From a virus, in IMG/VR virus record IMGVR_UViG_3300020050_017826, positions 1 through 36,348 of that record: DNA of 36,348 bases, one strand, 5' to 3'. Below the pieces are notes generated by a model. That model saw only the letters and a list, made by a program, of their open reading frames with translations, was not told where the DNA came from and did not search any database. Both the position numbers and the translations under genes were made by a program. Positions 1-33,159 of this stretch are shown in pieces. Numbering within the stretch: position 1 is the first letter of the stretch; every line of letters starts with the position of its first letter.

Positions 1-121
1 CATACAGGAAGACTGTGGGTGGCCCGGAAGTACAAAGCTCCATCAACAGCTTGCTGGAAAAAGCAACATCCTTCCAAGGTGGGAAGTACGCAGCTCTTTT
101 GGATGCTGCTACGAAGAGTGG
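1..121. repeat. Terminal direct overlap, left copy (identical to 36228..36348)
   Basis: The 121 nt at the left end recur exactly at the right end. This is the signature of a circular or circularly permuted genome written as a linear contig. Unique length is 36227 bp. Confidence 0.95.
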
Positions 122-1335: not shown

Positions 1336-1635
1336 CTAGCTGTTGAGGTCAATCTTGCCTTTAGACCACCCAAGACCAAAAGCTCTTTTTGGTGTGAGAG
1401 GTTTCGGATTGCGCTTCATTTTTGCATTCACCCACTCACGTACAAAAGTTTTTAAACTCACTTTGAACGTGGAGTGATCGCTTTCCAGCGTAATTTGGTT
1501 CTTAGCTGTACTCACAACAAGAGCACGAATGCTGGTGTTTTTGCGAGCGTAGAACCATTCTCCTACGATGCTAGGAGAGCTTTGAGAATGCTTCTTCCCA
1601 AGAAGTGGGATTACTAGCGGCTTTTTCTTTCTCAT
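1336..1635 (-). CDS. Hypothetical basic protein
   Basis: 99-aa ORF with ATG at 1635, very basic. Its 5' end overlaps the 3' end of the upstream gene by 65 nt in another frame. No recognisable motif. Confidence 0.35.
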   Translation of the reverse strand: MRKKKPLVIPLLGKKHSQSSPSIVGEWFYARKNTSIRALVVSTAKNQITLESDHSTFKVSLKTFVREWVNAKMKRNPKPLTPKRAFGLGWSKGKIDLNS

Positions 1636-2446
1636 TCTTCTCTTTCTGTCCAGCTGGGGTGGTTGGAAGCTTTGTACCCTTCATCAAGTGTTCTTTGATT
1701 TTCACCATCACGGCATCATCTAGGACGACCCCAAGTTCTTCCGGGGAGAGATCCAGCAAGTAGTCCTTCACGTTTGAAACGAACTTCTTGGAGTACTCAT
1801 CGTGGTATGGGATGAGGGAAGGGCTGTCTTCACCATCACCGTCATACTCAGCGTGGTCCTGGAGGAAGGACTTTAAAAACTCTTCCTTCACCTTGGGTTT
1901 TTCTAGACGTTTGTTCTTTTTTAAGAGTTCCGCAAGCTCGATATCATACTTAGCTTTAAGCTTAGCCACACGCTCATCATACTTACGCTGGTCTTCACGT
2001 TGTTTGTAGGTTAGGTTTTCTTCTTCCAGAGCTTTTAGGCGCTTGGCCTCGGGGGAGAGTTGGCTATACTCGAATTGCTCCACAACATACTTCGAGGCAG
2101 CTTCGTAGGGGTCCATACCAGCTTCCTTCAAAGCATCCCATGGTTTGCTCTTTAATTTATTCAAAACACTCTCGCTTTTGCTTTTGATCTCATTCGCTTC
2201 TTTTAAACGTTTGTCCGCAGCTAGGGCCTTTTGAAGCCGTGCATGTACTTCATTGTCATCGAACTCATACTCTTGTGCTTGGCCGTCTACCTCGAACTTG
2301 AACTTGCGCTTCTGTGCTGGAGTGAGGTTTTGCTCTTGTCCTCCTTTTGGAGCTTGAGTACCAGAAGAGTCATTTACGATGGAACCATTTTCACCACTTG
2401 AGGTGGGTGAAGAACCGTTAGAATTTTCCGACATACTTGAGATCAT
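1571..2446 (-). CDS. Scaffolding-like protein (acidic, coiled-coil)
   Basis: ORF 1571..2494. ATG 2494 lies about 4 nt from the predicted transcription start, so ATG 2446 (MISSMSENS...) or 2434 is more likely. Ser/Gly-rich N-terminus followed by long K/E-rich helical segments and an acidic patch. Divergent from and adjacent to the capsid gene. Confidence 0.4.
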   Translation of the reverse strand: MISSMSENSNGSSPTSSGENGSIVNDSSGTQAPKGGQEQNLTPAQKRKFKFEVDGQAQEYEFDDNEVHARLQKALAADKRLKEANEIKSKSESVLNKLKSKPWDALKEAGMDPYEAASKYVVEQFEYSQLSPEAKRLKALEEENLTYKQREDQRKYDERVAKLKAKYDIELAELLKKNKRLEKPKVKEEFLKSFLQDHAEYDGDGEDSPSLIPYHDEYSKKFVSNVKDYLLDLSPEELGVVLDDAVMVKIKEHLMKGTKLPTTPAGQKEKNEKEKAASNPTSWEEAFSKLS

Positions 2447-2497: not shown

Positions 2498-2508
2498 ATA
2501 CGCTTGAC

Positions 2509-2524
2509 TGCAAACTCTGTGCCA
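2509..2524 (-). promoter_or_regulatory. sigma54-type -24/-12 promoter TGGCAC-AGAGT-TTGCA for the scaffold-like gene
   Basis: The reverse complement of 2509..2524 is an exact match to TGGCAC-N5-TTGCA. It is intergenic, 63 nt upstream of ATG 2446. An alternative sigma70 reading is TTGCAG-N17-TATGGT. Confidence 0.5.
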
Positions 2525-2540
2525 TGCTACTCTTCGTGTG

Positions 2541-2556
2541 TGGCACTACTTTTGCG
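2541..2556 (+). promoter_or_regulatory. sigma54-type -24/-12 promoter TGGCAC-TACTT-TTGCG for the major capsid gene
   Basis: Exact TGGCAC-N5-TTGC match, 77 nt upstream of ATG 2633. Only 16 bp separate its -24 box from that of the divergent promoter. A weaker sigma70 alternative is TTGACT(2504)-N18-TACTCT. Confidence 0.5.
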
Positions 2557-2632
2557 TGTCTCTGGGACGAGTGGCTCTATCCCTAAAGTGATTTACCCTT
2601 AACATTGAAAAAGAAAATGGAGTACCAGTAAA

Positions 2633-3895
2633 ATGGCACAAGATAATACCCCAGATGCAATAAATAGCATCGCTAAACCGGTGTTCGCACAGAGCATTGT
2701 GGACTTAACCCCGGAAATCAACTTTTTGCTCAAAAACGTACCTTTCGTGGCTAGTGAAAAGCAGCTTGGAAGATACTATGAACAACCCACTATTTTGACC
2801 GAAGACCAAGGCTTCACGTATGCAGATGAAGATGATGGTATTTATGATCTAAATGACTCCATCGCGATGACGATTAAAAGCGCCATTGCGGTTGGTCAAC
2901 AGATCACCGGCAAGAGTGTGGTGTCGTACAAAGAAGCCGCTGTAGCTGTGAGTGCGGGAAAGATTGCATACAAGAGTTCAATTCAAGTCCGAATGGAAAG
3001 CTTGGGCAATACTGCGGCGAAACGTATGGAAATCGCCATGATCTACGGAAGAGCCGCTACCGGCTTGGGTCGAAGCGTGACCGGAACGACTTTGAGCTCG
3101 ACTCAGTTTCGGTTTGTGCTTCCAACCTCCCAATGGAGTGACCACATCTGGGCAGTTTCCCAGAATGCTGAGTTGATTGGGTACAATGACACCGGTTCGG
3201 CAATTAACGCCACCCCAGTGTCGGTGTATGATGTCGATGGTGTGAACTTTTACGTCAAAGTGAGTGGCTCCACGACCGCTATCACTGCAATCAACTCCGG
3301 CATCGCGGCTGGGATCAACCTGTTCTTCCGCAGTGCGTATGGCAAGGAAATGTATGGTTTGGATGCAATGGCGAGTGCAACTGGCACGCTTTTTGGCATT
3401 GACACCTCGCTTTACCCACTGTGGAGAGGAAACGTTGTCGCTACTTCTGGTGCGATGACGCTAGCAAAGTTGCTAAAGCTAATCATCCCAGCCCTTGTAA
3501 AAGGTATGTCTGGGGAGTGTTATGCTCTGGTGAACTATGGCACGTTTGCCAATTTGGCTAACGACGAAAGTGCCTTGGTTCGCTATGGTGCTAGCTTGGA
3601 CGACAAAAACGCCGAACGTGGTTCAAAGACCATCACCTTCCGCTACCAAAGGGGTTTGATTAAGATCGTCTCCCACCCAGTGGTGAAGAACGGTGAAATG
3701 TTCGTGTGTCAGGCTGACACGCTTTCTCGTGTAGGTGCGACCGACTTGACGTTTGGACGCCCTGGCAAAGAAGGTGTTGTATTTACGGACTTGGAGAGCA
3801 AAAACGGCTTCCAGTTCCGTGTGTATGCTGACCAAGCGATTTTCTGCTCACGCCTTGGTGTGATCACGAAAGTCACTGGCATCGTGAATGCGTAA
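2633..3895 (+). CDS. Major capsid protein (HK97-fold inferred)
   Basis: 420 aa with GGAG upstream. It is the only capsid-sized candidate gene in the genome. It has its own promoter and is followed by the strongest terminator in the window. A scaffold-like gene is adjacent. Assigned by position, size and composition, not by a diagnostic motif. Confidence 0.6.
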   Translation: MAQDNTPDAINSIAKPVFAQSIVDLTPEINFLLKNVPFVASEKQLGRYYEQPTILTEDQGFTYADEDDGIYDLNDSIAMTIKSAIAVGQQITGKSVVSYKEAAVAVSAGKIAYKSSIQVRMESLGNTAAKRMEIAMIYGRAATGLGRSVTGTTLSSTQFRFVLPTSQWSDHIWAVSQNAELIGYNDTGSAINATPVSVYDVDGVNFYVKVSGSTTAITAINSGIAAGINLFFRSAYGKEMYGLDAMASATGTLFGIDTSLYPLWRGNVVATSGAMTLAKLLKLIIPALVKGMSGECYALVNYGTFANLANDESALVRYGASLDDKNAERGSKTITFRYQRGLIKIVSHPVVKNGEMFVCQADTLSRVGATDLTFGRPGKEGVVFTDLESKNGFQFRVYADQAIFCSRLGVITKVTGIVNA

Positions 3896-3924
3896 GTAGG
3901 ATTTTTCTCAAAAGTCCCACCTTG

Positions 3925-3969
3925 AGGGGGTCTTTCTGGTTAACTCTAGAAAGACCCCCTTTCTTTTTC
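3925..3969 (+). terminator. Rho-independent terminator after the capsid gene
   Basis: Perfect 13-bp stem AGGGGGTCTTTCT (3925..3937) / AGAAAGACCCCCT (3948..3960) with a 10-nt loop, followed by TTCTTTTTC. Confidence 0.85.
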
Positions 3970-3976
3970 ACTTTCA

Positions 3977-4006
3977 TTGCAACCTCTGTGCCAAGTGTGA
4001 TAAAAT
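3977..4006 (+). promoter_or_regulatory. sigma70-like promoter TTGCAA-N18-(TGa)TAAAAT ending 6 nt before ATG 4013 (leaderless candidate)
   Basis: TTGCAA at 3977..3982, extended -10 TGATAAAAT at 3998..4006, then cacgaa and the ATG. There is no Shine-Dalgarno. The gene needs its own promoter because it follows the terminator. Confidence 0.45.
3978..3993 (-). promoter_or_regulatory. sigma54-type match TGGCAC-AGAGG-TTGCA on the minus strand, antisense to the capsid gene
   Basis: The reverse complement is an exact TGGCAC-N5-TTGCA match. It overlaps the plus-strand promoter candidate above, and no minus-strand gene lies downstream of it. Confidence 0.3.
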
Positions 4007-4012
4007 CACGAA

Positions 4013-5158
4013 ATGGCAGTCACACTCACAGTCAATGGTAGCTCTTTCTCGTACCCCTCGCTTGAAACGGATACTTTTTGGGGAGCTGCGGCAACTGGGT
4101 GGGCTCAGGCTGTTACGAATGGGATGCTCCAGAAGGCCGGAGGAAGCTTCACCCTTACCGCGAATGTGGACTTTGGCGCATCGTTTGGTCTGAAGTCGCT
4201 GCACTTTTCCTCCCGCACATCTAACCCTTCAAGTGCCGGTCTGATTCGCCTTGCAAATGTTGATACCTTTGGGTTTCGCAACGCCGCAAACTCTGCGGAT
4301 CTTCTTTTCAGCATCAACCCCGCGAATGATCACCTTCTTTTTAACGGCATAGACCTAAGCGCTTCTTCTTCTAGTGGTAATGTTGTGGGACCAGTTAGTT
4401 CTACGGACAATGCGTTGGTTCGATTTGATGGCATAACGGGTCAGATTATTCAGAATTCCTCAGTAGTTGTATCTGATGCGGGAGAAATAACTGGCGTTAC
4501 AACGATAAATGCAGCTGGAACTACGACTTTTGGTGCAACAGTAGCAACAGGAACAGCGGCTGCAAATGCGCTAACGTCGGCAACCACGGCAGTTTTAGGC
4601 ACAGGCGTTTCAACCACAACCACCCCCGACATGACCATTAACGCCAACACGGGTGACGCGACGATTCGCTTGCAGGTAAACAATGCTGCGGCAAACGCTT
4701 GGGATATCAGAAACGACAATTCAGATGCAGATGCATATTGTTTAGAGTACAATGCTATTCAACGATATAATTTCAAAGCCACAGGTTTGACGGCGATTAA
4801 ATTTGACAGCACTAATATCAGTTCCAGTTCAACCCCTGTGTCTAACACAATATACCCAAACACGCTAATCAAAGCCTGGGCGAATACAACTTCAGCAGGA
4901 GTTATATTGGATGCAAATAATTTAACGTGCTCCAGCGGTTCCACTGGCCAATATACTTATACATTTAAGGTTCCTATGGCAAGCACTAATTATGCTGTAA
5001 TTGTTACTGTAGAGGACACAGCTACGGGCTATATTGCGTCTGTCGCGACCACTACATTTTCAGGAAAAACAGTTAATTCATTTCTTGTAAATGTGGTGAC
5101 TAATTCTAATGCATTTGTGAATGCGCGGCATTCCGTGATGGTTATCGGTCAGCAGTAA
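4013..5158 (+). CDS. Tail fibre-like protein
   Basis: 381 aa. The N-terminus (TVNGSSFSYPS..TFWGAAATGWAQAVTNG) resembles conserved phage fibre N-termini as I recall them. The remainder is Thr/Ser/Ala/Asn-rich beta-type sequence. Confidence 0.5.
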   Translation: MAVTLTVNGSSFSYPSLETDTFWGAAATGWAQAVTNGMLQKAGGSFTLTANVDFGASFGLKSLHFSSRTSNPSSAGLIRLANVDTFGFRNAANSADLLFSINPANDHLLFNGIDLSASSSSGNVVGPVSSTDNALVRFDGITGQIIQNSSVVVSDAGEITGVTTINAAGTTTFGATVATGTAAANALTSATTAVLGTGVSTTTTPDMTINANTGDATIRLQVNNAAANAWDIRNDNSDADAYCLEYNAIQRYNFKATGLTAIKFDSTNISSSSTPVSNTIYPNTLIKAWANTTSAGVILDANNLTCSSGSTGQYTYTFKVPMASTNYAVIVTVEDTATGYIASVATTTFSGKTVNSFLVNVVTNSNAFVNARHSVMVIGQQ

Positions 5159-13042: not shown

Positions 13043-13119
13043 GTGTCTAGTTACTCTAAAGAGTTCTCAAGGAAGAATCAAGAGGGGGATGAAAAATACA
13101 TGGCATGGTTTTTGAACAT

Positions 13120-13135
13120 AGCAAACGCTATGCCG
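13120..13135 (-). promoter_or_regulatory. Weak sigma54-like site CGGCAT-AGCGT-TTGCT ahead of the replication module
   Basis: Correct GG-N10-GC spacing and a good -12 box, but a degenerate -24 box. It lies in the 85-nt gap before ATG 13042. Confidence 0.2.
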
Positions 13136-18622: not shown

Positions 18623-18934
18623 CTATCCCCGTGATTGAAGTACGTTTCGGAGCTTAAGTGACTCCACCTCGGCTTGAAGTTGCTCTAGAGCTTGAGCTGG
18701 AGTCTTCTCCTTGAACGCCTTTCGCTGTTGCTGGCGCTTAAAGCCATACAGACTTAGGACCAAAAACGTATTCGCAATATCCAGGATACCGGTACTAGGT
18801 GCCAAAGCCATCTTCACAATCACCACCCACGCAGCTACGTTTGTAGCGCTGAGTGCGTTGTCTCGATTTAAAAGTGAGAGGAATATGAAAACCTTGAAAA
18901 ATCCTTCTTTGATCTTAAGTGCGAATGCGTCCAT
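18623..18934 (-). CDS. Holin-like membrane protein (three hydrophobic segments plus charged tail)
   Basis: 103 aa. Hydrophobic stretches FFKVFIFLSLL, VAAWVVIVKMALA and ILDIANTFLVLSLYGF, followed by a basic coiled tail. The order holin-like, small terminase, terL resembles T7. Confidence 0.4.
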   Translation of the reverse strand: MDAFALKIKEGFFKVFIFLSLLNRDNALSATNVAAWVVIVKMALAPSTGILDIANTFLVLSLYGFKRQQQRKAFKEKTPAQALEQLQAEVESLKLRNVLQSRG

Positions 18935-19448
18935 TTTTTTGCTCCTGTTTCGTCATTATAGCTTGTTTTCTAAATATGTCCAACGCGGTATACCAGGACG
19001 GCACACTGTACTTCCCAGCGCGCTCTAGCTCGTACGCTTTTGTATCATACTCCTTGAGTGATGTGGAGTATTGTCGCAGTTCCCTGGCATTCAACCTCAG
19101 CGGGGTGTACTTTAAAAGAAGCGCACATAGGAGTTCATACTCCAAAGCTTTGAAATCTTGCAAGCTTTTCTTGAGGGGTGAAGGCAAGTCCCCTAAAAAG
19201 ACCTCAGCCATATCATGCCACAGCGCGAAGAGTCTGAAGCGCTCAAAAACCCCAGCGGGCATCAAGTTCCACACCATCAAAGAGTGGTCTAAGATACTAA
19301 TGCTAGATGTTCCACAATTCCTGTACACCCCATCGGCTAAGCGTAGGAATGATTCTAAGCTTAGGGATGGGTTGAAAGGATCTAGTGTGCGTAACTTTCC
19401 ATCCACAAAGATCTCTATACTAACACTTTTCTTCATAGTACACCCCAT
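18915..19448 (-). CDS. HD-domain phosphohydrolase (YfbR-like 5'-deoxynucleotidase type)
   Basis: 177 aa. HSLMV ... FALWHDMAEVFLGDLPSPLKK (H..HD..D pattern). Confidence 0.7.
   Translation of the reverse strand: MGCTMKKSVSIEIFVDGKLRTLDPFNPSLSLESFLRLADGVYRNCGTSSISILDHSLMVWNLMPAGVFERFRLFALWHDMAEVFLGDLPSPLKKSLQDFKALEYELLCALLLKYTPLRLNARELRQYSTSLKEYDTKAYELERAGKYSVPSWYTALDIFRKQAIMTKQEQKNGRIRT
18955..18983 (-). promoter_or_regulatory. sigma70-like promoter TTGGAC-N17-TATAAT for the holin-like/terminase/portal genes
   Basis: On the minus strand: TTGGAC (18983..18978), a 17-nt spacer and TATAAT (18960..18955). GGAG and ATG 18934 follow. It lies inside the 3' end of the HD gene. Confidence 0.45.
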
Positions 19449-20232
19449 TCACAAAGGTACTGACTTTGCCATCGCTTTCGATAATAGGAACGGCTTGAAG
19501 GAAGCAAAACCCATCAGCCATAAACCCAACACAAAACCCAAGTTGCCACTGAGTCGTTTTAATCGCTGGAAGGTATTTCACGTACTGCACATCCACAAGG
19601 TGACCAGCATTCGCCGTGAACCGCGTGCCATGCTCCACATCCCCATCATACGCAACACCAAGGCGATGAGTGTGGCCAAAGATCAAATTTGATCCGAACA
19701 CCTTGCCACCTTGAAGAAGTGCCCCGGCTCCAGCCGAACCAAAATCATGCGTCACATACACACGGTCGAAAAGCTTGATGTGACTTCTGTATGGCACAAA
19801 ATCCCACTTCTTCCCTAGCTCTAGGATGTGCCGGATGGAAAAGTTATCCGCTCTTGAGCGCATCTGAGGGTGGTTTTGTCGAATCAACCTAGGTAATCTT
19901 TCCTCGTGGTTTCCCTCGAGGTATATCATCTTCTTTGCCCCCACACTCTCTAGCTCATCAATCCCAAGCCGTGCTGCTGCAATCTCCTCTTCTAGTGATG
20001 CAAAGTTTGATTCGTGCACAGCATGTGTGCTTGCAAACGCACAGTCCACAAAATCCCCCAGCACCACGATCATGGTCACCTTGAGTGCGCGAGCCACTTT
20101 GATCATGAGCCTGAACGCTCCATCGTGGTGGTATGGAAAGTGTGCGTCCGGCACATAAAGCACCACTTCACTTCCACTCACCCTTGGCGCTACTCTTACT
20201 TTCTTTTGAATTTTCTTTTTCATTTTACTCAT
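19420..20232 (-). CDS. Calcineurin-like metallophosphoesterase
   Basis: 270 aa. Motifs PDAHFP (DxH), LGDFVD (GD), EGNHEE (GNHE) and FGHTH (GH). Confidence 0.8.
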   Translation of the reverse strand: MSKMKKKIQKKVRVAPRVSGSEVVLYVPDAHFPYHHDGAFRLMIKVARALKVTMIVVLGDFVDCAFASTHAVHESNFASLEEEIAAARLGIDELESVGAKKMIYLEGNHEERLPRLIRQNHPQMRSRADNFSIRHILELGKKWDFVPYRSHIKLFDRVYVTHDFGSAGAGALLQGGKVFGSNLIFGHTHRLGVAYDGDVEHGTRFTANAGHLVDVQYVKYLPAIKTTQWQLGFCVGFMADGFCFLQAVPIIESDGKVSTFVNGVYYEEKC

Positions 20233-20840: not shown

Positions 20841-21387
20841 CCTCACACTGCTCAATCACACTTTGGATTGGACCATCGAATGGCTTCCCCTCAGGGTGCT
20901 TCATCCCAGCCACATGAAGCATCTCGTGCATGAGGTAAACTCTAAGCACCAGTGGACATTCTTTTTTACTCTTCCCCTCACCCCACGCAACACTGTTCAC
21001 CAACACTACTTCGTGGGGTGCTCCACTTGCGACTTCCTTCGCACTCATGTGAAACGTGACTGCACAAAACGGAGCGTCTTCAGGTTTAGTGTCAAACGCC
21101 CCGGCAAAGTCTTCTTGAGTGTGAAAAAAGAAGAACCTCACATTTCGCTCACTTTCTATGATCTTAAATGTTGCTGGGAATTTGTCTTCCAGATAATTAC
21201 ACTTCGCGAGAATGGTGTACGCATCCTTCACTTCCGCTGCCACAGCCTTAGTCTTGGCGTGCATCTCACCGAAATCATACTTTGTGTTGGAAGGCGGGAT
21301 GACTATGCTAGCCCCAGTCCAGTACTCCTGCGCACTCACACTCAAGCTCCCACTCAAAATCACACCCATGATGAAACTTCTAATCAT
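20800..21387 (-). CDS. Secreted zinc metalloprotease with metzincin-type HExxHxxGxxH motif
   Basis: 195 aa. Signal peptide MIRSFIMGVILSGSLSVSAQ and motif YLMHEMLHVAGMKHPEG. Confidence 0.6.
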   Translation of the reverse strand: MIRSFIMGVILSGSLSVSAQEYWTGASIVIPPSNTKYDFGEMHAKTKAVAAEVKDAYTILAKCNYLEDKFPATFKIIESERNVRFFFFHTQEDFAGAFDTKPEDAPFCAVTFHMSAKEVASGAPHEVVLVNSVAWGEGKSKKECPLVLRVYLMHEMLHVAGMKHPEGKPFDGPIQSVIEQCEDEEKLRVLVSQGE

Positions 21388-21938
21388 ACCCCTATGTCCT
21401 TTCTTTTAAAACTAACCCACTTCTTTCGTCTGACCACGAGCACCGGCATCACAAATGCAAACCCCACACCAGCAAGAGTTGTATTGTGGCTACTGCTAAG
21501 ATTATGAGTAAGATTAAAACCCGCTCGTGCACTTTGGTATTTTAGCATACTTTTGCGAAAACTCTCCATCACTCTTGTGACCTTAGCTCGATACACCTTT
21601 GCTTTTGATGGGGTTTTGCTGTGGTACTGAGTCCAGGTGCGTTTCATCCCTAGGTATGTGCATAGCGGTAAAACGCTAGAGCGATCTAGCTTTGTGATTC
21701 TCAGTTCTTGGAGCGCTAGAGGCGAAAGTTGTCCAACCCCGATGTCCCCAGTGGGTGACTCTACTTTAGCTCTAAAACTACTTTCCACACTCACCATACT
21801 TAAAATCAAAAGCGGATCATACCTCTGGCATTGTGGTGAGCTGAGTTCCCCCACTATTTTCAAAACCACCTCACGCTTTGCGCTTGGGTGATACGCACTC
21901 ACCATCGCGACCATGGCTATAACAGCGGACACCATCAT
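21384..21938 (-). CDS. Lytic transglycosylase (SLT domain) with N-terminal anchor
   Basis: Internal ATG 21938 overlaps the upstream TGA (ATGA). The protein starts MMVSAVIAMVAMVSAY. SLT motif VESSFRAKVESPTGDIGVGQL. Confidence 0.75.
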   Translation of the reverse strand: MMVSAVIAMVAMVSAYHPSAKREVVLKIVGELSSPQCQRYDPLLILSMVSVESSFRAKVESPTGDIGVGQLSPLALQELRITKLDRSSVLPLCTYLGMKRTWTQYHSKTPSKAKVYRAKVTRVMESFRKSMLKYQSARAGFNLTHNLSSSHNTTLAGVGFAFVMPVLVVRRKKWVSFKRKDIGV

Positions 21939-22123
21939 ACGCTCAAGTACCCTAGGGTGAGTACACCCAAACCCATCATTATAACCCCAACGCGAGCAAA
22001 GTAGCCTAGCGTAAAGTACCATCGCGCAAAGCTCCCCGCCGTGGTGATTATGCCACCCAGGACGTAGAGTGCCGCTATTATTCCTACCCAAAGAACTGCT
22101 AAGTACGCTGCGAATGTGATCAT
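21935..22123 (-). CDS. Small two-TM membrane protein (holin/pinholin-like)
   Basis: 62 aa, almost entirely hydrophobic (two TM helices). ATGA-coupled to both neighbouring genes. Confidence 0.5.
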   Translation of the reverse strand: MITFAAYLAVLWVGIIAALYVLGGIITTAGSFARWYFTLGYFARVGVIMMGLGVLTLGYLSV

Positions 22124-22554
22124 TTTTTTCTCTCCTTTGATGGCAACTCTAGGGTGGACCTGTCATCAAACTTTCCACCATCGTACCCTAAGATGTTGTA
22201 TGTAATTGCAAAGAGAATGTTGCAAGCCGCATGCCAAGAATGCGGCAACCCACTTTCACGGTCTAAGTTTTCTTCATCCACCATGTGACGAAACCAGCTG
22301 TTGAAAACTCTGCTATAGCTCATCCCCTTAGCATAGTTCAAAGACGCATACTTTCGCGCTCCAAAGTCCAACACCTTGAACATACCTTCGTTTGCGATCA
22401 AGGTCTTGAGCGTACTTTGCGGGATGTCTTTGCGATAAAAGTACCACTGCACCATTTCCTCACAAAGTACCCATGAGCCAAAGCATGATCTAAGCACGCT
22501 TGGGTGGATGTGGTGAAAAGTGTGTTTTCCAGCATCATCCCTCTTGGCACTCAC
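22120..22554 (-). CDS. dATP/dGTP diphosphohydrolase N-terminal-domain-like protein (DUF5664-type)
   Basis: 144 aa with a GTG start. KRDDAGK ... DFGARKYASLNYAKG ... FRHM ... LDRESGLPHSWHAACNILF matches my recollection of that phage family. Confidence 0.55.
   Translation of the reverse strand: MSAKRDDAGKHTFHHIHPSVLRSCFGSWVLCEEMVQWYFYRKDIPQSTLKTLIANEGMFKVLDFGARKYASLNYAKGMSYSRVFNSWFRHMVDEENLDRESGLPHSWHAACNILFAITYNILGYDGGKFDDRSTLELPSKERKK
22221..22236 (-). promoter_or_regulatory. sigma54-type match TGGCAT-GCGGC-TTGCA, internal to the upstream gene and about 100 nt before the membrane-protein gene
   Basis: The reverse complement reads TTGGCATGCGGCTTGCA, with correct GG-N10-GC spacing and a perfect -12 box. 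Confidence 0.35.
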
Positions 22555-22715: not shown

Positions 22716-22825
22716 AAATTTTAGTCCTTCCGTAAAGCCTCTATGATGCAAATCACACCCAAGAGTAACGCCCCTATGAGTATGCATACCACTATTTCTA
22801 CACTTCCACTCTTGAACATCTTCAT

Positions 22826-22854
22826 ATCTTAGCTTCCGGCAAAGATGATTTCAA
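22826..22854 (-). promoter_or_regulatory. sigma70-like promoter TTGAAA-N17-TAAGAT
   Basis: Read on the minus strand in the 160-nt gap downstream of the MazG-like gene. Confidence 0.3.
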
Positions 22855-22876
22855 GAATGTCAAAAAGTGTGCCATC

Positions 22877-23191
22877 CTAACGATCATCACCCTTCCCCTT
22901 GATCATGCCTCTCGCTCTTCTGTCACTAAGCTTGTCCAAGTTCATCAGTGCAATCTCTTCAAGATCCGTGCCAAGCTGCACACTAAGGTCACTCACAAAC
23001 CAAATTATATCGCCCAACTCTTTTTTCAAACCTTCCATGTCTAACTCACCATCACCTCTCAACGCACGCTTATACTTTCCCATGAGCTCTCCCACTTCTT
23101 CTACCAACCCACAAAGCGCATGACTCTCCCTGCGCTCCTCGTCCACCACATTAAACTCCCGTGCTAGCTTTGAGTATTCCTTAAGCGTCAT
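22877..23191 (-). CDS. mazG: MazG-like nucleotide pyrophosphohydrolase
   Basis: 104 aa. LVEEVGELMGKY, ELGDIIWFVSDL and NLDKLSDRRARG form the classic MazG EExxE / ExxD pattern. Confidence 0.8.
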   Translation of the reverse strand: MTLKEYSKLAREFNVVDEERRESHALCGLVEEVGELMGKYKRALRGDGELDMEGLKKELGDIIWFVSDLSVQLGTDLEEIALMNLDKLSDRRARGMIKGKGDDR

Positions 23192-26452: not shown

Positions 26453-27106
26453 TTACCTCAAGCTAAGCTCTATGCCAAGGAAGTCCGCGCCTAAGTTCTC
26501 ACTCGACCCACTTCCATTGCTAAAGTGTGCACCAAATATGCCAAGTTTTGCGCCCAAGCCCTTGCTCACCACTCCAAAAGCCACTCGATTCTCAACCTGA
26601 AGGTGAGTCGCAATTCCAGTGGTGCGTTTGTCAAAAACCGCAACTCCTACGGATGCACTAGCATAGAGGATATCGTTTTCCGCCAAAGCCTCCGTACCCA
26701 CACTCACAAAAGTGTTCCAGTTTTGCGTGAGAAAGTTCACATGATTTATACCACCCACACTCCCATACAGATGAAACACACTCACAACCCTTTCACGTGC
26801 CGTGATGCTGAGGTACTTTTGGTTTTGAACGTACTTTTGACCTAGCCCGGTTCTTAGCGTAAGTTCAGTTGCACTCACATTCAGTGTCAAACCCACGATG
26901 AAAGTTACGAGTATGGCTTTGAGATGTTTTAAGGTCACTTTTAATTGAAACACGCTAGGAGTAGTGTAGGATGACATGTATTTTTTATGAAACTTGATGT
27001 ACGCGAATGCTTTCTTTTTGTTTGTGTACCTCGCACCATCCAAGAGAAGGTCCGTCAACTTGTCATCATACTTTCCGATAATGTATATGTTTTGCTTACG
27101 TTTCAT
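26453..27106 (-). CDS. PagL-like outer-membrane beta-barrel (lipid A 3-O-deacylase / acyloxyacyl hydrolase family candidate)
   Basis: 217 aa. Internal signal-like LKHLKAILVTFIVGLTLNVSA (alternative start ATG 26977), then amphipathic beta strands. The C-terminal ...LGIFGAHFSNGSGSSENLGADFLGIELSL resembles the HxSN catalytic region of PagL (IHYSNAG...NDGIES in P. aeruginosa, from memory). Confidence 0.55.
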   Translation of the reverse strand: MKRKQNIYIIGKYDDKLTDLLLDGARYTNKKKAFAYIKFHKKYMSSYTTPSVFQLKVTLKHLKAILVTFIVGLTLNVSATELTLRTGLGQKYVQNQKYLSITARERVVSVFHLYGSVGGINHVNFLTQNWNTFVSVGTEALAENDILYASASVGVAVFDKRTTGIATHLQVENRVAFGVVSKGLGAKLGIFGAHFSNGSGSSENLGADFLGIELSLR

Positions 27107-27513: not shown

Positions 27514-27739
27514 GAGTATCCTTTTTTAGGAGTGATTTGAAGTGCGCAATACTCTCAAGTGCACTTGCTTGGAAATCTTCATCTAGTGTTTGCATCATGA
27601 GTACACGAGTGGCGATTATAGCGGCTTCCGGCACAATATGAGATGCCATTACAGCCATTTCTAGAGATGTGAGATTCTCTCGAAGTGTACGAAGGCTTTT
27701 CTTAATGTGTGATCTAGGGTGTGATCTAGGGTCTGTCAT
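27506..27739 (-). CDS. Hypothetical early protein
   Basis: 77 aa with ATG preceded by AAGGA. It is the first gene after the tandem promoters. Confidence 0.5.
   Translation of the reverse strand: MTDPRSHPRSHIKKSLRTLRENLTSLEMAVMASHIVPEAAIIATRVLMMQTLDEDFQASALESIAHFKSLLKKDTHD
27707..27730. repeat. Exact tandem 12-mer GTGTGATCTAGG x2
   Basis: Read directly. It spans codons 4-11 of gene 27506..27739 and encodes PRSHPRSH. Confidence 0.9.
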
Positions 27740-27810: not shown

Positions 27811-27826
27811 CGCTATTTTCGTGCCA
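27811..27826 (-). promoter_or_regulatory. sigma54-type match TGGCAC-GAAAA-TAGCG
   Basis: The reverse complement has a perfect -24 box and GC at -12 with correct spacing. It is intergenic, 72 nt before ATG 27739. No sigma70 -10 box is found at the right distance. Confidence 0.35.
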
Positions 27827-27833
27827 AGTTGAG

Positions 27834-27863
27834 ATTATAGCGGTGGTGCAATCTGTGTGCCAA
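27834..27863 (-). promoter_or_regulatory. Promoter readable two ways: sigma70 TTGGCA-N18-TATAAT, and an exact sigma54 TGGCAC-ACAGA-TTGCA (27847..27862)
   Basis: Both readings come directly from the minus strand. The element is 15/17 identical to the promoter at 28308..28324, which has TTGAA instead of TTGCA. Confidence 0.5.
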
Positions 27864-28242: not shown

Positions 28243-28262
28243 TTTGAGTGTTCCTTTCAAGG

Positions 28263-28301
28263 ATGGTCATGCTCATGGTCATACCCATGCGTATGATCAT
28301 A
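28263..28301. repeat. Three copies of the ATGGTCAT / TATGATCATA motif overlapping the -10 box and early transcribed region of the leftward early promoter
   Basis: ATGGTCAT at 28263..28270, ATGGTCATA at 28275..28283, TATGATCATA at 28292..28301. Confidence 0.8.
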
Positions 28302-28324
28302 CTGTGATTCAAGCTGTGTGCCAA
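28296..28324 (-). promoter_or_regulatory. sigma70-like early promoter TTGGCA-N17-TATGAT
   Basis: On the minus strand: -35 box at 28324..28319 and -10 box at 28301..28296, about 50 nt upstream of ATG 28242. Confidence 0.55.
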
Positions 28325-28453
28325 GTTTGGTGGGAAAGTATGATTGAAGAGTGGGATTGTGATTATACTCTTTATACTGGTGAAAATGAGTGATTTGAAG
28401 CATGGGTATGAGTTTAAACATGATTTAAATCGAGATGAGCATTCTAAGTTTTT

Positions 28454-28471
28454 AGAAAGTTCAGAAAGTTC
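28454..28471. repeat. Tandem 9-mer AGAAAGTTC x2
   Basis: Read directly. AAGTTC is the complement of the GAACTT half-site of the next repeat family. Confidence 0.85.
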
Positions 28472-28506
28472 GTGGACTTGATCACCATGGCCATGTGTGT
28501 CACAAA

Positions 28507-28981: not shown

Positions 28982-29242
28982 ATGAGCATGAAAGAATATC
29001 TCAAAACTGCAAAGTTACTTTCCCGGCTTGGGGAAGCTGACATAGATTTCCTAAAACTTGTACCTAGGACTTTGGACCAAGTGATGAGGGAGTACGCTAG
29101 AAGCTACCTCATCATGAAGGCCGGGTCGTATGAAGTCGCGGCCAAAGAGCTAGGAGTGTCGGAAGCCACTCTTTACCGCTTGGTTCCTTCAAAAACCATA
29201 AAAAGAAGCGCGAAGAGGGTGAAGCATGTTCCGGAGGACTGA
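28982..29242 (+). CDS. Stand-alone Fis/NtrC-type helix-turn-helix (HTH_8-like) DNA-binding protein
   Basis: 86 aa. MREYARSYLIMKAGSYEVAAKELGVSEATLYRLV resembles the C-terminal DNA-binding domain of Fis and NtrC-family activators. An excisionase-type HTH_17 fold cannot be excluded. Confidence 0.6.
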   Translation: MSMKEYLKTAKLLSRLGEADIDFLKLVPRTLDQVMREYARSYLIMKAGSYEVAAKELGVSEATLYRLVPSKTIKRSAKRVKHVPED

Positions 29243-29518: not shown

Positions 29519-30328
29519 TTAGAACCCTCTGATACCCCTGAAATGCGGCCCTGGAGCCATGGTGGCTGGTTGAGTCGCAACAGGTGGGCTGATGATGGTC
29601 ACAAGGCGCTCTAGTGATCTCAAGGCACGCTCACGGCGATTCTGGGCATCCTCTTTGTCACCCCAGGAGTCAAGCAAAGTGGCCACAGCTACATCCACAA
29701 GAACGGCTTGGAGATCAAAGGGGAGTGGAAGAGCGCTGGCAGTTTCCGGCTCAGCAACATACCCACCTTCGACGGCACTTGTGGAGTCAATCGTAATGGT
29801 GGTTGTGCCCGAGCCACTCAAAACGCTCACACTAGCGTCAATCAACTTTCCATTCGAGTCTAGGAGGTCAACTTCGCTCCCAGTGAACGCTGCACTCAGG
29901 CCTAGGACATTTGAAGCCACACTTTCCACGACATACTCGTCTTCAACCAAAGAAGGTAATCGCAGGTAATACTTCACCGCGAAGTCATTCGAGAGGGAGT
30001 TGAAGCTCACCACGCTGTTGCCTTGGGTGTAGCCAAGCATTGGGGTGTACTGGGTTTGGCTCGAGGTATTACCTTGAGATCGCACATACACGCCCTCTAG
30101 GCGCTCACCAATGGCACGTTCCGGGATAGGGAACTCCAGCAACCCATTCTCCACTTCCTTTGCCACCACCAGGCCGCTCCAAGCATTATCCAAGAGTGCG
30201 GGGACAATTTCGGTTTGCACACAGTGGTTTACGGCGTCGAGGATGATATCATTCGTGCCCTCTGGGAGACTCTGAGGGAGCATAGCACTGGTTTTTACTT
30301 TTGCGAGCAAGCTTGAGGTTTTAATCAT
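29519..30328 (-). CDS. Virion structural protein candidate (adaptor / tail tubular A-sized)
   Basis: ORF 29519..30424 with three possible ATGs (30424, 30382, 30328). 30328 avoids head-to-head overlap with the divergent gene and sits 7 nt after a TATAAT. No motif recognised. Confidence 0.35.
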   Translation of the reverse strand: MIKTSSLLAKVKTSAMLPQSLPEGTNDIILDAVNHCVQTEIVPALLDNAWSGLVVAKEVENGLLEFPIPERAIGERLEGVYVRSQGNTSSQTQYTPMLGYTQGNSVVSFNSLSNDFAVKYYLRLPSLVEDEYVVESVASNVLGLSAAFTGSEVDLLDSNGKLIDASVSVLSGSGTTTITIDSTSAVEGGYVAEPETASALPLPFDLQAVLVDVAVATLLDSWGDKEDAQNRRERALRSLERLVTIISPPVATQPATMAPGPHFRGIRGF

Positions 30329-30334
30329 GATTGA

Positions 30335-30349
30335 GATTATACTATAATC
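30335..30349. promoter_or_regulatory. Perfect palindrome GATTATA-C-TATAATC, giving a TATAAT on both strands of a divergent intergenic region
   Basis: Read directly. The minus-strand TATAAT (30341..30336) ends 7 nt before ATG 30328. Confidence 0.5.
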
Positions 30350-30399
30350 AATAGGGGTAGCTCCAGTGCTTTTTGCTCCCATTTTACCCCAACCCACGT

Positions 30400-30405
30400 T
30401 ATACT
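30400..30405 (+). promoter_or_regulatory. -10-like TATACT 6 nt before ATG 30412
   Basis: Read directly. There is no Shine-Dalgarno and no convincing -35 box. Confidence 0.3.
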
Positions 30406-30411
30406 CTTGGG

Positions 30412-32745
30412 ATGCAATACGCATTCCCCAAACTCCGAGGTTTGATTACAAACGCGAATACGCTAGAGACGGATCAGATTGGACTTAGCGATGCGAAGAA
30501 TTTAGTCTTTTCGCGACCGAATCTTGTGAGCGGGTGTCGGGGGTTTAAGCAACTCGCGGGGACCACTTCAGCGGGAAAGCAGCTCTTCACAAATGGGGAA
30601 GATCGATGGTTGCTAAACTCCACCGGCCTAGCGCTTTACGCCGGAAGTGATTGGGGCAGCGTGGCAGCGTGTGTACCTCCTAGTGGAAGCCTCATGACAG
30701 CTTCCTTTAGTGGAGATCGTAACTTTTTCACCACTTCCACAGGAGTAAAGGCTTGGGAAAATGGTGCTCTTTTGCCTGCTGGTGTGCCTCCAGCTCTGGA
30801 TATCGCGACTAGTGTGACTGGGACTTCGGGATTTTTGGCAAATGGGAACAAAGTAAGCTACACATATGTTTTTAGTCGGCAGACATCGGTACGACTTTTA
30901 GTTGGCTCTCCAGCATTTGGCATTGAGCTCACAAACTCGAGTGGAGGGACGCGAAATGTTGCTCTCACCATGACCATTCCCAGCAGCATCACGACTTCAC
31001 ACCAAGTTCAAGTATACAGGACAGTTCAAAGTACAGCTTCAAACGCGGAGTACTATTACGTCAAATCACTCAGCATTGCGGCTGGGGACATCACAGCAGG
31101 ATTTCTCTCCTTCACCGACACCATCTTGGACACCCAGCTAGGGGCTGCGCTTTACACAAACGCAAGTCAAGAAGGGATTTTGGCTCAAAATGAACCTCCT
31201 CCAGCGTGCAAGGTGCTAGGGTCATTCCAGGGCACAACTTTTTTTGCGAATGTGAGCCGCCCTGCGGAGAAGTTGCTCAAACTTCTTCTTACCCCTAGCG
31301 TAAATGACACCATAGCCATAGCTGGGGTGACATTCACTGCAAAGGCGGCTGAAACCATAGCCAGTGGGTTTTTTGATCAAAGTGGCACCTTGGAAAACAC
31401 CGCACGCTCACTTTGCAGGGTGATAAATCAATATGCATCTAGCACTAGTGTCTATGCGAGATACCTTGGTGCTGGGTTGATTTTCCTTCAAGGTCGCGCT
31501 CTCACAGTCACAAGTCTCACCATCACCCCAAGTGTAGCTGCGACGTGGGACATACAGGATGGCCGGCCAATCGAAGAAAAGAATAAAGTATATTGCTCCA
31601 AGCCTGGGGAGCCGGATGCGGTGCCGTCTCAGAATTTTGCTACCATAGCGGGAGTGGCGGCTGAGGTCACAGCGATGGTCTTCACTCCGGTTCATATTTT
31701 CATTTGCACGAGCGAGGGGATTTTTGGCTCGAGCGAACCATACTTACCAACAGCTCAGATTGTGGTCATAGATGCTACTCTTGTGGTGCCGAATCCGTTC
31801 TTGGTGAGTCCTGCGGAGGCTGGGGCGTACGTGCTTAGCCGAGAGGGGTTATTTAAAGTGACTCCTCAAGGTTCAGAGCGATTAGATTACTTTTTAAAGA
31901 ACTACGAAGACATTCTTGATTTCGATGCGCTTAGCGTGAGGGGTTTCATGCTCAACTACACTGTGGATAGAAATCTCATTGTAGCTTTGCCTCAAACGGA
32001 TGATGCGGAGAGTGATCTTACTTGGTGGGTTTTTTCCACCTTAGTTCAAGAGTGGACGTACATGGACCGCATAGACCATAGCGCAATTTTCTACCAAGGT
32101 AAGCTGAATTCCCTTCAAAGCGATCAGACATTTGTGGAGCGAAAAGAACGTAACCGGAGTGATTTTGCTAATCGTGAGTATGCGGTGGTGATTTCGAGTG
32201 TGGCTGATGATGTGGTAGAGCTGGTAGATGCGAGTGAAGCTATAGAAGGTTACTCTCTTGTGCAAGGTTCGTATGAAGGTCAGATTTTAAGCATAGATGG
32301 GAACTTCCTCACCTTAGATGTTAGCTTTCCGTGGGACTTGAGTACGGCCACTTTGCTTGAGCCCCTGGAGTATCGGCTAGAAACGACTGAAATTACGGTG
32401 GGTGATGCGACTTTGCTCAAAAAGTTTACCGAACAAACAGTTTTGATGCAGGATGCAGCATTTAGCAACATACGGATGGACTGGAAGAGTGATCGCTCGC
32501 AACTTTTTCAGGAAGTAAATGCGGTTGGGGGAACGGCGAGTGGATGGGGGCTGCCAGCATGGGGGATTTTCCCGTGGGGTGGGTTTCCTGGGGGACCTCG
32601 CCCAATTAGAGTCTTAATCCCGCTGAACATGCAGCGTGGGATGTGGTTGCAGTGTGGAGTGCGGCTCAAGGTAGCAAAGCAGTATTTTAGTTTTGCCGGG
32701 CTACACTTGAATGTGTACCAAACCACTACGAAGATCAAAACATAA
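30412..32745 (+). CDS. Large tail protein (nozzle / tail tubular B-sized)
   Basis: The ORF opens at a TTG (30373); the first ATG is 30412. 777 aa, Ser/Thr/Gly-rich beta-type sequence. It is the first gene of the rightward structural block. Called on size and position only. Confidence 0.4.
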   Translation: MQYAFPKLRGLITNANTLETDQIGLSDAKNLVFSRPNLVSGCRGFKQLAGTTSAGKQLFTNGEDRWLLNSTGLALYAGSDWGSVAACVPPSGSLMTASFSGDRNFFTTSTGVKAWENGALLPAGVPPALDIATSVTGTSGFLANGNKVSYTYVFSRQTSVRLLVGSPAFGIELTNSSGGTRNVALTMTIPSSITTSHQVQVYRTVQSTASNAEYYYVKSLSIAAGDITAGFLSFTDTILDTQLGAALYTNASQEGILAQNEPPPACKVLGSFQGTTFFANVSRPAEKLLKLLLTPSVNDTIAIAGVTFTAKAAETIASGFFDQSGTLENTARSLCRVINQYASSTSVYARYLGAGLIFLQGRALTVTSLTITPSVAATWDIQDGRPIEEKNKVYCSKPGEPDAVPSQNFATIAGVAAEVTAMVFTPVHIFICTSEGIFGSSEPYLPTAQIVVIDATLVVPNPFLVSPAEAGAYVLSREGLFKVTPQGSERLDYFLKNYEDILDFDALSVRGFMLNYTVDRNLIVALPQTDDAESDLTWWVFSTLVQEWTYMDRIDHSAIFYQGKLNSLQSDQTFVERKERNRSDFANREYAVVISSVADDVVELVDASEAIEGYSLVQGSYEGQILSIDGNFLTLDVSFPWDLSTATLLEPLEYRLETTEITVGDATLLKKFTEQTVLMQDAAFSNIRMDWKSDRSQLFQEVNAVGGTASGWGLPAWGIFPWGGFPGGPRPIRVLIPLNMQRGMWLQCGVRLKVAKQYFSFAGLHLNVYQTTTKIKT

Positions 32746-33101: not shown

Positions 33102-33129
33102 ACTAGTGTGATTTAAAGTTGCACGAATA

Positions 33130-33159
33130 TTGCATACCCATCATGGGATGTGCTAGAAT
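33130..33159 (+). promoter_or_regulatory. sigma70-like promoter TTGCAT-N18-(TGc)TAGAAT ending 8 nt before ATG 33168
   Basis: Same architecture as the promoter at 3977..4006. There is no Shine-Dalgarno. Confidence 0.4.

Follow-up and report, generated by a model that had tools for sequence, protein, structure and literature searches.

Bipartite boxes between the scaffold-like and capsid genes

We analysed the viral DNA of IMG/VR record IMGVR_UViG_3300020050_017826, a stretch of 36,348 nucleotides (nt) that is called the window below, in which two bipartite boxes lie back to back between a scaffold-like gene and a capsid gene. Both boxes contain TGGCAC-N5-TTGC (N5, any five nucleotides), the core of the -24/-12 promoter element of the bacterial sigma factor sigma-54 (RpoN). 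An earlier note on this DNA had read them as divergent sigma-54 promoters that drive the two genes. The control region and its flanking genes comprise the following features, with positions counted from the first letter of the window.

1571-2434, minus strand: scaffold-like gene, about 287 amino acids (aa), charged and helical
2470-2442, minus strand: sigma-70-type promoter of the scaffold-like gene, TTGACC-N17-TATGAT-N7-ATG2434, scan score 10/12, leaderless mRNA predicted
2504-2533, plus strand: candidate sigma-70-type extended -10 promoter of the capsid gene, TTGACT-N18-(TGc)TACTCT
2509-2524, minus strand: site A, TGGCACAGAGTTTGCA, sigma-54-type -24/-12 element facing the scaffold-like gene, exact match
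2541-2556, plus strand: site B, TGGCACTACTTTTGCG, sigma-54-type element whose -12 C lies 78 nt upstream of the capsid ATG, exact match
2557-2588, plus strand: conserved block 3' of site B, GTGTCTCTGGGACGAGTGGCTCTATCCCTAAA, nearly invariant in close relatives; 2589-2618 diverges
2633-3895, plus strand: major capsid protein gene, HK97-fold, AlphaFold pLDDT 81.6, weak PHROG major head hit

The earlier assignment of 2633-3895 as the capsid gene was borne out by the HK97 fold of its AlphaFold model, whose best Foldseek matches in the PDB are the capsids of phages A-1(L) and SU10 (E 1e-10); a PDB sequence search with the capsid profile gave no hit. Nineteen related loci were retrieved for comparison, including the close relatives L009-L012, L014-L016, L018 and L019, which jointly cover the sites compared (A-G and the candidate K, see below). 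The scaffold-like protein has no family hit in PHROGs or Pfam, and its homologs hold the same position in L001, L005, L006 and L007; we infer its scaffold role from position and composition. Translation of this gene most likely starts at ATG 2434 and not at 2446, because ATG 2446 is absent from close relatives. With this start, the end of site A is 75 nt away and not 63 nt, as had been reported before. The -24 boxes of A and B are separated by 16 base pairs (bp; 2525-2540), as described earlier, and the sites are 32 bp apart centre to centre. The inverted repeat formed by A and B was also considered as an RNA hairpin and rejected: the N5 segments are neither complementary nor co-varying, and there were no Rfam hits.

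Enrichment and placement

TGGCAC-N5-TTGC occurs four times in the window, at 2510-2524 (minus), 2541-2555 (plus), 3979-3993 (minus) and 27848-27862 (minus), precisely the matches that had been picked out by eye on the two strands. The mean in 100 dinucleotide-preserving shuffles was 0.06, and none of them reached four. Because the consensus was specified in advance, a fourfold exact match is strong evidence for sigma-54. With one mismatch allowed, 14 matches were found vs 2.9 expected. A position-specific scoring matrix (PSSM) was trained on 29 Salmonella sigma-54 sites from chromatin immunoprecipitation (ChIP; PMC3844500) and compared with 300 dinucleotide shuffles. At a score of at least 14 bits there were 7 matches vs 0.62 in the shuffles (0/300 reached 7), and at 12 bits or more 13 vs 1.8. 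The hit density is thus above that of shuffled sequence, the control for which the earlier note had asked.

The seven best sites (A-G) are all intergenic, i.e. they fall within the 3.6% of the genome that is non-coding, and six of them point along the downstream genes, site C being the exception. The spacing is strict, with TTG at +11 in 8 of about 25 occurrences of TGGCAC, and the variant sites retain GG and G(C/A). Measured from the -12 position, the start codon lies 76 nt away for A, 78 nt for B, 73 nt for E, 67 nt for F and 79 nt for K. The sites outside the capsid region, and the sigma-70-type promoters near them, are as follows.

3924-3961, plus strand: intrinsic terminator hairpin after the capsid gene, 16-bp stem, then TCTTTTTCAC
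3977-4015, plus strand: promoter of the tail-fibre-like gene (4013-5158), TTGCAA-N18-(TGa)TAAAAT-N6-ATG4013, sigma-70-type, leaderless mRNA predicted
3978-3993, minus strand: site C, TGGCACAGAGGTTGCA, exact match, top PSSM score (19.2)
13120-13135, minus strand: candidate site K, CGGCATAGCGTTTGCT, 79 nt from ATG 13042, PSSM score 12.3
22221-22236, minus strand: doubtful site H, TGGCATGCGGCTTGCA, TGGCAT-N5-TTGCA, inside the dGTP diphosphohydrolase gene
22854-22826, minus strand: promoter of the 32/34-aa membrane peptide, 3' of site G, TTGAAA-N17-TAAGAT-N6-ATG22819, sigma-70-type, leaderless mRNA predicted
22859-22874, minus strand: site G, TGGCACACTTTTTGAC, in the intergenic gap 22820-22876
27811-27826, minus strand: site E, TGGCACGAAAATAGCG, TGGCAC-N5-TAGC, 36 nt downstream of D and 73 nt from ATG 27739
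27847-27862, minus strand: site D, TGGCACACAGATTGCA, exact match
28308-28323, minus strand: site F, TGGCACACAGCTTGAA, in the divergent control region 28243-28496
33130-33159, plus strand: promoter of gene 33168 (structural), TTGCAT-N18-TGcTAGAAT-N8-ATG33168, sigma-70-type

Both variants listed in the earlier note are present (TGGCAT-N5-TTGCA at 22222-22236 and TGGCAC-N5-TAGC at 27812-27826, minus strand). The first of them, site H, was rejected as a promoter element: the codons W-H-A-A-C encode it, HAACN is conserved across the protein family, and coding constraint suffices to account for it. Another look-alike, TTGCAC-N5-TTGCA at 33119-33134, was rejected as well, since L009 keeps only TTGCA(T/C)-N18-TGcTA(G/A)AAT-N8-ATG, a sigma-70 promoter. 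Site K straddles a gene end and the gap 13043-13127; its conservation is uninformative because the sequence is identical in L018. Sites D and E form a 27-nt tandem duplication. The boxes had been tied to late genes, and they are not confined to these: the presumed early region contains D, E and F, and G precedes nucleotide-metabolism genes.

Three smaller features lie near these sites. Downstream of D and E, a perfect tandem 12-mer (GTGTGATCTAGG, two copies, 27707-27730) is found within a 77-aa gene. Next to site G, 22718-22825 on the minus strand encodes a hydrophobic membrane peptide of 32/34 aa (MKMFKSGSVEIVVCILIGALLLGVICIIEALRKD), conserved in L018 and L019 and missing from the list of open reading frames (ORFs) because of its small size. 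Site F is preceded, at about 110-160 nt, by a stretch of roughly 60 nt (28420-28475) that is near-identical in L014 between diverged flanks and carries GAACTTTCT twice in tandem (28454-28471); this stretch may be an enhancer, or else the rightward genes may have their promoter there.

Conservation of the boxes and of sigma-70-type promoters

In relatives with 79-98% identical proteins, unconstrained intergenic DNA is heavily diverged; the boxes and their spacing persist. At sites A, B, D, E, F and G, TGGCA(C/T) and TTGC, TTGA or TAGC are kept at fixed distance, and N5 and the flanks change. Changes within the boxes are limited to C-to-T at position 6 (D, E) and A-to-G at position 5 (C). A C-to-T change at position 6 is a classic tolerated variant of sigma-54 sites.

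The individual sites follow this pattern. In L009, L011 and L012, site A keeps TGGCAC and TTGCA, with N5 changed from AGAGT to ACGTT or ATGTT, and site B is invariant. L002, whose capsid is 43% identical, has TGGCACGGTTTTTGA 79 nt before its capsid ATG. Site C reads TGGCGC...TTGCA in L009 and L011. In L014, site D becomes TGGCAT-AAAGG-TTGCA and site E becomes TGGCATGAAAATAGC (TGGCAT-GAAAA-TAGC), while site F keeps TGGCAC and TTGAA around a new N5. Site G, upstream of the nucleotide-metabolism genes, is kept in L018 and L019, where the homology starts exactly at site G because the upstream gene differs.

A second class of conserved signals was recognised in the phage and its relatives, namely sigma-70-type promoters, often TG-extended, with a -10 box 6-8 nt from the ATG, which would yield leaderless or almost leaderless mRNAs. 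This layout is kept across relatives down to 43% capsid identity, with the hexamers retained and the spacers replaced. Kept hexamers and replaced spacers are the classical signature of such promoters. The scaffold-like gene of L009, for instance, has TTGACT-N17-CATAAT-N7-ATG with an unrelated spacer, and L001, L002, L005, L006 and L007 share a -10-N6-ATG layout at this gene. At the tail-fibre-like gene, both hexamers of 3977-4006 are kept in L009 and L011 and the spacer varies. The candidate capsid promoter keeps its -35 box, its TG extension and T1, A2, T4 and T6 of its -10 box (TAGTAT) in L009, L011 and L012; site A lies within its spacer, and its predicted start near 2540 coincides with site B. 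Strings resembling sigma-54 sites at the scaffold gene of L001, L005 and L006 (TGGCATGATGATTGCATG), and TGGAAC...TTGCATG in L007, were rejected as such. They end in the start codon, and a TTGACA box stands exactly 17 nt before CATGAT; we read them as extended -10 sigma-70 promoters of leaderless mRNAs.

The sigma-70 alternative that the earlier note had raised as a caveat applies to the neighbouring promoters (2470-2442, 3977-4006, 2504-2533, 22854-22826 and 33130-33159) and not to the boxes themselves. For sites A, B and G there is no fitting -10 box 16-18 nt away. For D and F the sigma-70 reading fails because L014 loses or shifts their -10 partners while the boxes stay: the TTGGCA-N18-TATAAT overlapping D is not kept, its TATAAT being lost, and the distance from F to its -10-like hexamer changes from 17 to 20 nt. 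A sigma-70 scan of the window found no overall excess of matches. The idea that the boxes are mere parts of sigma-70 promoters (TTGGCA or TTGCAA serving as -35 box and spacer), or resemble sigma-54 sites by chance, is thus very improbable even though the best scan hits overlap D (11/12) and F (TTGGCA-N17-TATGAT), the promoter of gene 4013 uses TTGCAA of C as its -35 box, and both H and 33119-33134 proved explicable otherwise: the enrichment of the exact core argues against it, as does the conservation of the second box TTGC in what would be a free spacer.

The same boxes in other phages

IMG/VR was searched for back-to-back pairs with the pattern GCAA-N5-GTGCCA-N10-25-TGGCAC-N5-TTGC and with a control pattern of the same composition and symmetry in which the boxes were reversed. 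Pairs were found in 95 contigs (L021-L115) vs 2 for the control. Of these contigs, 64 make up a single podophage-like family (L082-like) without close relatives in culture, and the remaining 31 are a diverse set ranging from 32 to 67% GC. Apart from a weak terminase match in four loci, the pair-bearing contigs are unrelated to the window, and no protein with the GAFTGA motif of sigma-54 activators was found in their retrieved DNA. The window and the array-bearing loci, which are partial, share no protein family.

In many of these contigs the boxes form arrays, which comprise a median of 7 and at most 12-13 copies over a length of about 180-350 bp; within an array, the orientation alternates or is tandem. 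The copies follow each other at 21-28 bp, start to start, and the arrays lie 250-760 nt from the nearest genes, facing both ways. Examples of arrays or pairs in IMG/VR contigs are:

L082: 3411-3705
L043: 30-228
L073: 1778-2124
L109: 3194-10556, with 19 boxes spread across 7 kb of small genes

A role of the arrays as replication origins is weakened by DnaA boxes being present in only 7/64 arrays of the L082-like family. The L082 array had no blastn match among cultured phages, and no description of such arrays was found in the literature searched.

A specificity profile was derived from 435 unique sites in the pair-bearing contigs, and the positions left unspecified by the search were compared with the Salmonella ChIP sites. 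Position 7 is G/A in 68%/30% of sites in the L082-like family, 69%/25% in the other loci and 66%/34% in Salmonella. Position 16 is A or T in 93%, 81% and 93%, respectively, and the base before TGGCA is T in 68% of L082-like and 49% of other sites. Degenerate copies within clusters vary almost exclusively at position 6 (C-to-T in 54 of the 58 changes there), at position 16 (A-to-T) and at position 12, and spare G2, G3, T13, G14 and C15; background near-matches give a flat profile. In the window itself, which offers ten sites only, position 7 is A or G in nine. Among the sites bound in vivo in Salmonella are TTGA, TTGT and TGGCGC variants (PMC3844500), so that the known range includes F, G and site C as it reads in L009. 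An identical motif in unrelated phages of 32-67% GC argues for a conserved host factor, and the boxes are very probably sigma-54 recognition elements.

Gene content, relatives and host

The terminal 121 nt are identical at both ends of the window (1-121 = 36228-36348), which is therefore a circular (or terminally redundant) complete genome; the closed assembly has about 36,227 bp and 46% GC, and a 478-aa ORF (34997 to about 206) spans the circular junction. As judged from its sequence, this is a podophage-like, circular genome of about 36.2 kb. PHROGs and Pfam identified a family A DNA polymerase, a primase/helicase, an exonuclease, a large terminase and a portal. The same searches of all ORFs found no phage RNA polymerase, sigma factor or AAA+ enhancer-binding protein, and a six-frame regular-expression search found no GAFTGA motif in the window, in agreement with the earlier reading; all transcription must therefore rely on the host polymerase. 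No tRNA genes were found.

The 790-aa ORF was tried as a phage RNA polymerase and gave no polymerase signal; in relatives it sits after an adaptor-like gene. The nozzle protein gene of T7 likewise comes after the adaptor gene. In the window this nozzle-like gene (30446-32745, plus strand) diverges from a 301-aa ORF (29519-30424, minus strand), with about 20 nt between them, and L001 and L006 have a plus-strand SU10-type adaptor gene in place of the minus-strand ORF. The difference points to an inversion of this segment, to its replacement or to a strand called wrongly.

A megablast search of INPHARED with the window region returned no DNA match to any record, and the only cultured capsid match is that of a Silvanigrella phage, at 22% identity, so the phage is without a close cultured relative. 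Metagenomic capsid homologs span 26-98% identity; a scan of IMG/VR with capsid peptide patterns gave no match. The hints to the host are weak: besides the Silvanigrella phage, a capsid of 33% identity lies on a 91-kb contig of a Bdellovibrionales metagenome-assembled genome (MAG; L013, JBGSNU010000030.1), and a 6-kb relative was binned with a Spirochaetes MAG. The L013 contig carries a terminase-portal-scaffold-capsid module, which may be a prophage and hence a clue to the host phylum of the phage group. The presumed early region also contains a PagL-like lipid A 3-O-deacylase gene (26453-27106, minus strand; Pfam E 3e-9), which L007, L014 and L016 share and which suggests a Gram-negative host whose lipopolysaccharide is remodelled.

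Nucleotide-pool enzymes are encoded on the minus strand at 22120-22554, 22877-23191, 18915-19448 and 19420-20232; the set consists of a PF18909 dATP/dGTP diphosphohydrolase (MazZ-like), MazG, an HD/YfbR-like dNTPase or 5'-nucleotidase, and a metallophosphoesterase. In some phages such sets go along with non-canonical bases in the DNA; a PurZ-like gene was not seen in the window. The gene of a 62-aa membrane protein (21935-22123, minus strand), which has a strong Shine-Dalgarno sequence, and the SLT/transglycosylase-like gene that follows it (21384-21938, minus strand) probably form a lysis cassette. A VanY/endolysin-like gene (907-1323) lies apart from it.

Possible functions of the boxes

The motif is present and enriched in the window, placed in its control regions and conserved in relatives, and it matches sigma-54 specificity. 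Comparison across the loci indicates that the boxes are no product of chance and that purifying selection maintains them as a bipartite -24/-12 element. We favour, with moderate confidence, the interpretation that they are conserved elements for host sigma-54, most likely activator-dependent promoters interleaved with sigma-70 promoters. This retains the earlier identification of sigma-54 elements, given that the boxes are conserved and match the specificity beyond the core, and gives up the simple wiring of one promoter to capsid and one to scaffold. Binding by sigma-54, transcription starts at the boxes and the mode of activation are what we infer from these patterns.

Sigma-54 is the sole bacterial sigma factor that needs an ATP-driven activator to start transcription; the start at its promoters falls about 12 nt beyond the GC. 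On our interpretation, the boxes would be genuine RpoN -24/-12 elements, read by the host RNA polymerase-sigma-54 holoenzyme in almost every larger control region of the genome. Five of the six co-oriented sites have their -12 position 67-78 nt from a start codon, and the resulting mRNAs would carry 5' leaders of about 55-66 nt, and site B would provide a leadered capsid mRNA with a Shine-Dalgarno sequence. Since the boxes are interleaved with sigma-70-type promoters, each operon would have two sigma inputs, probably mutually exclusive at the DNA. The AAA+ activator would be either a host enhancer-binding protein that acts without a nearby enhancer or an unrecognised phage factor.

Several observations weigh against activator-dependent promoters. 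There is neither a phage-encoded enhancer-binding protein nor an evident enhancer, and the 16 bp between A and B leave no room for a classical upstream activator site. All sites of the window but C (19.2 bits) score below the Salmonella training range (minimum 16.1 bits). Position 7 of site B is T and its position 16 is G, both rare in sigma-54 sites, and the more distant relatives L001, L003 and L005-L007 have no box upstream of the capsid gene. Site C aims antisense into the capsid terminator, where it has no gene to drive, and overlaps with the promoter 3977-4006 of the plus strand, at its -35 box and spacer. Sites D, E and F stand in the presumed early region, where an activator-dependent promoter would be odd. 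In the arrays of other phages, the 21-28 bp pitch means that neighbouring copies could not be filled by holoenzymes at once.

The scaffold-like gene appears to be served by its own conserved sigma-70-type leaderless promoter at 2470-2442; therefore site A is unlikely to drive it in the way proposed earlier. The gene has no Shine-Dalgarno sequence, and translation of a leadered mRNA starting at A would therefore probably be poor. At the capsid gene, the boxes overlap a conserved extended -10 sigma-70-type promoter.

The positions of the boxes raise another explanation. Sites A, C, D and F each fall on the -35 box or the spacer of a sigma-70-type promoter, and B and E are close to a +1. Such overlaps are typical operator positions. 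The boxes might therefore be operators or iterons for a small DNA-binding protein, encoded by the phage or by the host and distinct from sigma-54, that switches the overlapping promoters. The boxes occur in both orientations relative to the promoter they overlap, with A and C inverted, and the pairs are spaced 32 bp (A/B) and 36 bp (D/E) centre to centre. The arrays elsewhere, with 7-13 copies at their short pitch, would suit a small protein better than a 450-kDa holoenzyme. The genome also encodes one weak candidate for a phage DNA-binding regulator, and only one:

28982-29242, plus strand: 86-aa helix-turn-helix candidate, sub-threshold Pfam matches to HTH_17, HTH_22, HTH_23, HTH_28 and HTH_8

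We nevertheless regard this explanation as unlikely. Such a regulator would have to copy ten sigma-54 core positions with their spacing and variants (R at 7, W at 16, C-to-T at 6), and the same motif occurs in phages of 32-67% GC that share no detectable protein in the DNA retrieved, not even a protein family between the window and the partial array-bearing loci. As a rule, the operators of phages change together with their repressors. Moreover, the site is not palindromic; it has no dyad symmetry, and its halves never swap.

Alternatively, sigma-54 holoenzyme may bind the boxes mainly as a stable closed complex, over or beside the sigma-70 promoters, that does not fire and acts as a roadblock, competitor or timer, or, in arrays, as a sink or landing pad. 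The overlap with sigma-70-type promoters, the lack of a gene for site C to drive and the absence of an encoded activator and of an evident enhancer would all suit such a role, and so would the arrays of other phages, with their distance from genes and their two directions. Non-promoter, often intragenic sigma-54 sites are widespread in enterobacteria, as documented by the Salmonella ChIP-chip site list of PMC3844500 and reportedly in PMC4591121. However, six of the seven sites are co-oriented and regularly placed 67-78 nt from start codons, neither of which a roadblock needs, and site G lies upstream of the neighbouring sigma-70-type promoter, not over it. To our knowledge there is no phage precedent for closed complexes used as roadblocks, and we consider this role of the boxes quite unlikely.

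If the boxes are activator-dependent promoters, as we favour, a lytic phage with capsid, early and metabolic operons on sigma-54 would need either a host activator that is reliably on during infection or a new way to fire or use the closed complex. The recurrent pairs and arrays in uncultivated phages are the most interesting and least explained result. A doubtful but far-reaching proposal is that many unrelated, mostly uncultivated phages appropriate the sigma-54 holoenzyme without a classical enhancer-binding protein, by setting consensus -24/-12 boxes as single sites, pairs or dense arrays across their control regions, which would imply an unrecognised mechanism. This could be a phage factor that fires the holoenzyme without an AAA+ activator, which would give the phage an almost private polymerase, or it could be silent closed complexes serving as switches or polymerase traps over sigma-70 promoters. 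If confirmed, a use of these boxes by many phage lineages, which the IMG/VR scan suggests, would add a class of phage transcription strategy and supply a sequence signature that predicts rpoN in a phage's host. Phage use of host sigma-54 may be commoner than the single studied case.

Comparison with known systems

The dependence of phages on sigma-54 is indeed rarely described, as had been remarked, and the only precedent is Pseudomonas phage YuA, the one phage shown to depend on it: its development requires host sigma-54 (PMC5053324, PMC10914365). Like the phage analysed here, YuA has no RNA polymerase of its own, combines sigma-54-type with sigma-70 promoters and has no known phage enhancer-binding protein. 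Its sigma-54-type -24/-12 promoters lie in the particle-formation and lysis region. Its sigma-54-dependent promoters were reportedly described by Ceyssens et al. in 2008 (J Bacteriol 190:1429). YuA is a 58.7-kb siphovirus of 65% GC whose rpoN dependence was demonstrated experimentally, whereas our case is argued from DNA sequence. No detectable similarity to YuA and no relatedness to YuA/M6 (Yuavirus) was found. In the YuA record (AM749441), TGGCA[CT]-N5-NTGC does not occur in the three annotated promoter fragments or in the first 50 kb, the best match having 8/11 core bases; the window phage, by contrast, has consensus-perfect boxes, also in its presumed early region, a back-to-back pair and overlap with sigma-70-type promoters. 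Salmonella phages FelixO1 and Aji_GE were rejected as precedents, their rpoN phenotypes being metabolic or RpoS-mediated.

The bacterial consensus is YTGGCACGrNNNTTGCW, as represented in the Salmonella ChIP set (PMC3844500). Bacterial sigma-54 promoters share with the boxes the core, the 10-nt distance from GG to GC, the tolerated variants and the intergenic, co-oriented placement. They differ in having an enhancer and a cognate activator, neither of which is recognisable in the window, and in density, with at least 7 sites in 36 kb here vs a few dozen in a 4.8-Mb bacterial genome. Back-to-back pairs, as here, and arrays, as in the other phages, are not features of bacterial sigma-54 regulons.

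At glmY, both promoters share one start site. The glmY/glmZ genes of enterobacteria resemble the present case in that two sigma factors compete at one control region, giving dual input; overlapping sigma-54 and sigma-70 promoters are reported in PMC3045617. Unlike at glmY, the predicted starts differ here, and some boxes lie on the strand opposite to that of the sigma-70-type promoter they overlap.

Phage P1 has asymmetric C1 operators, non-palindromic sites of about 16 bp that are scattered, single or paired, and overlap core promoter elements. They are like the boxes in being a non-palindromic site repeated at many promoters. The P1 operators, however, are confined to P1-like phages and their repressor, whereas the motif in the window equals the site of a universal host sigma factor and recurs in unrelated phages.

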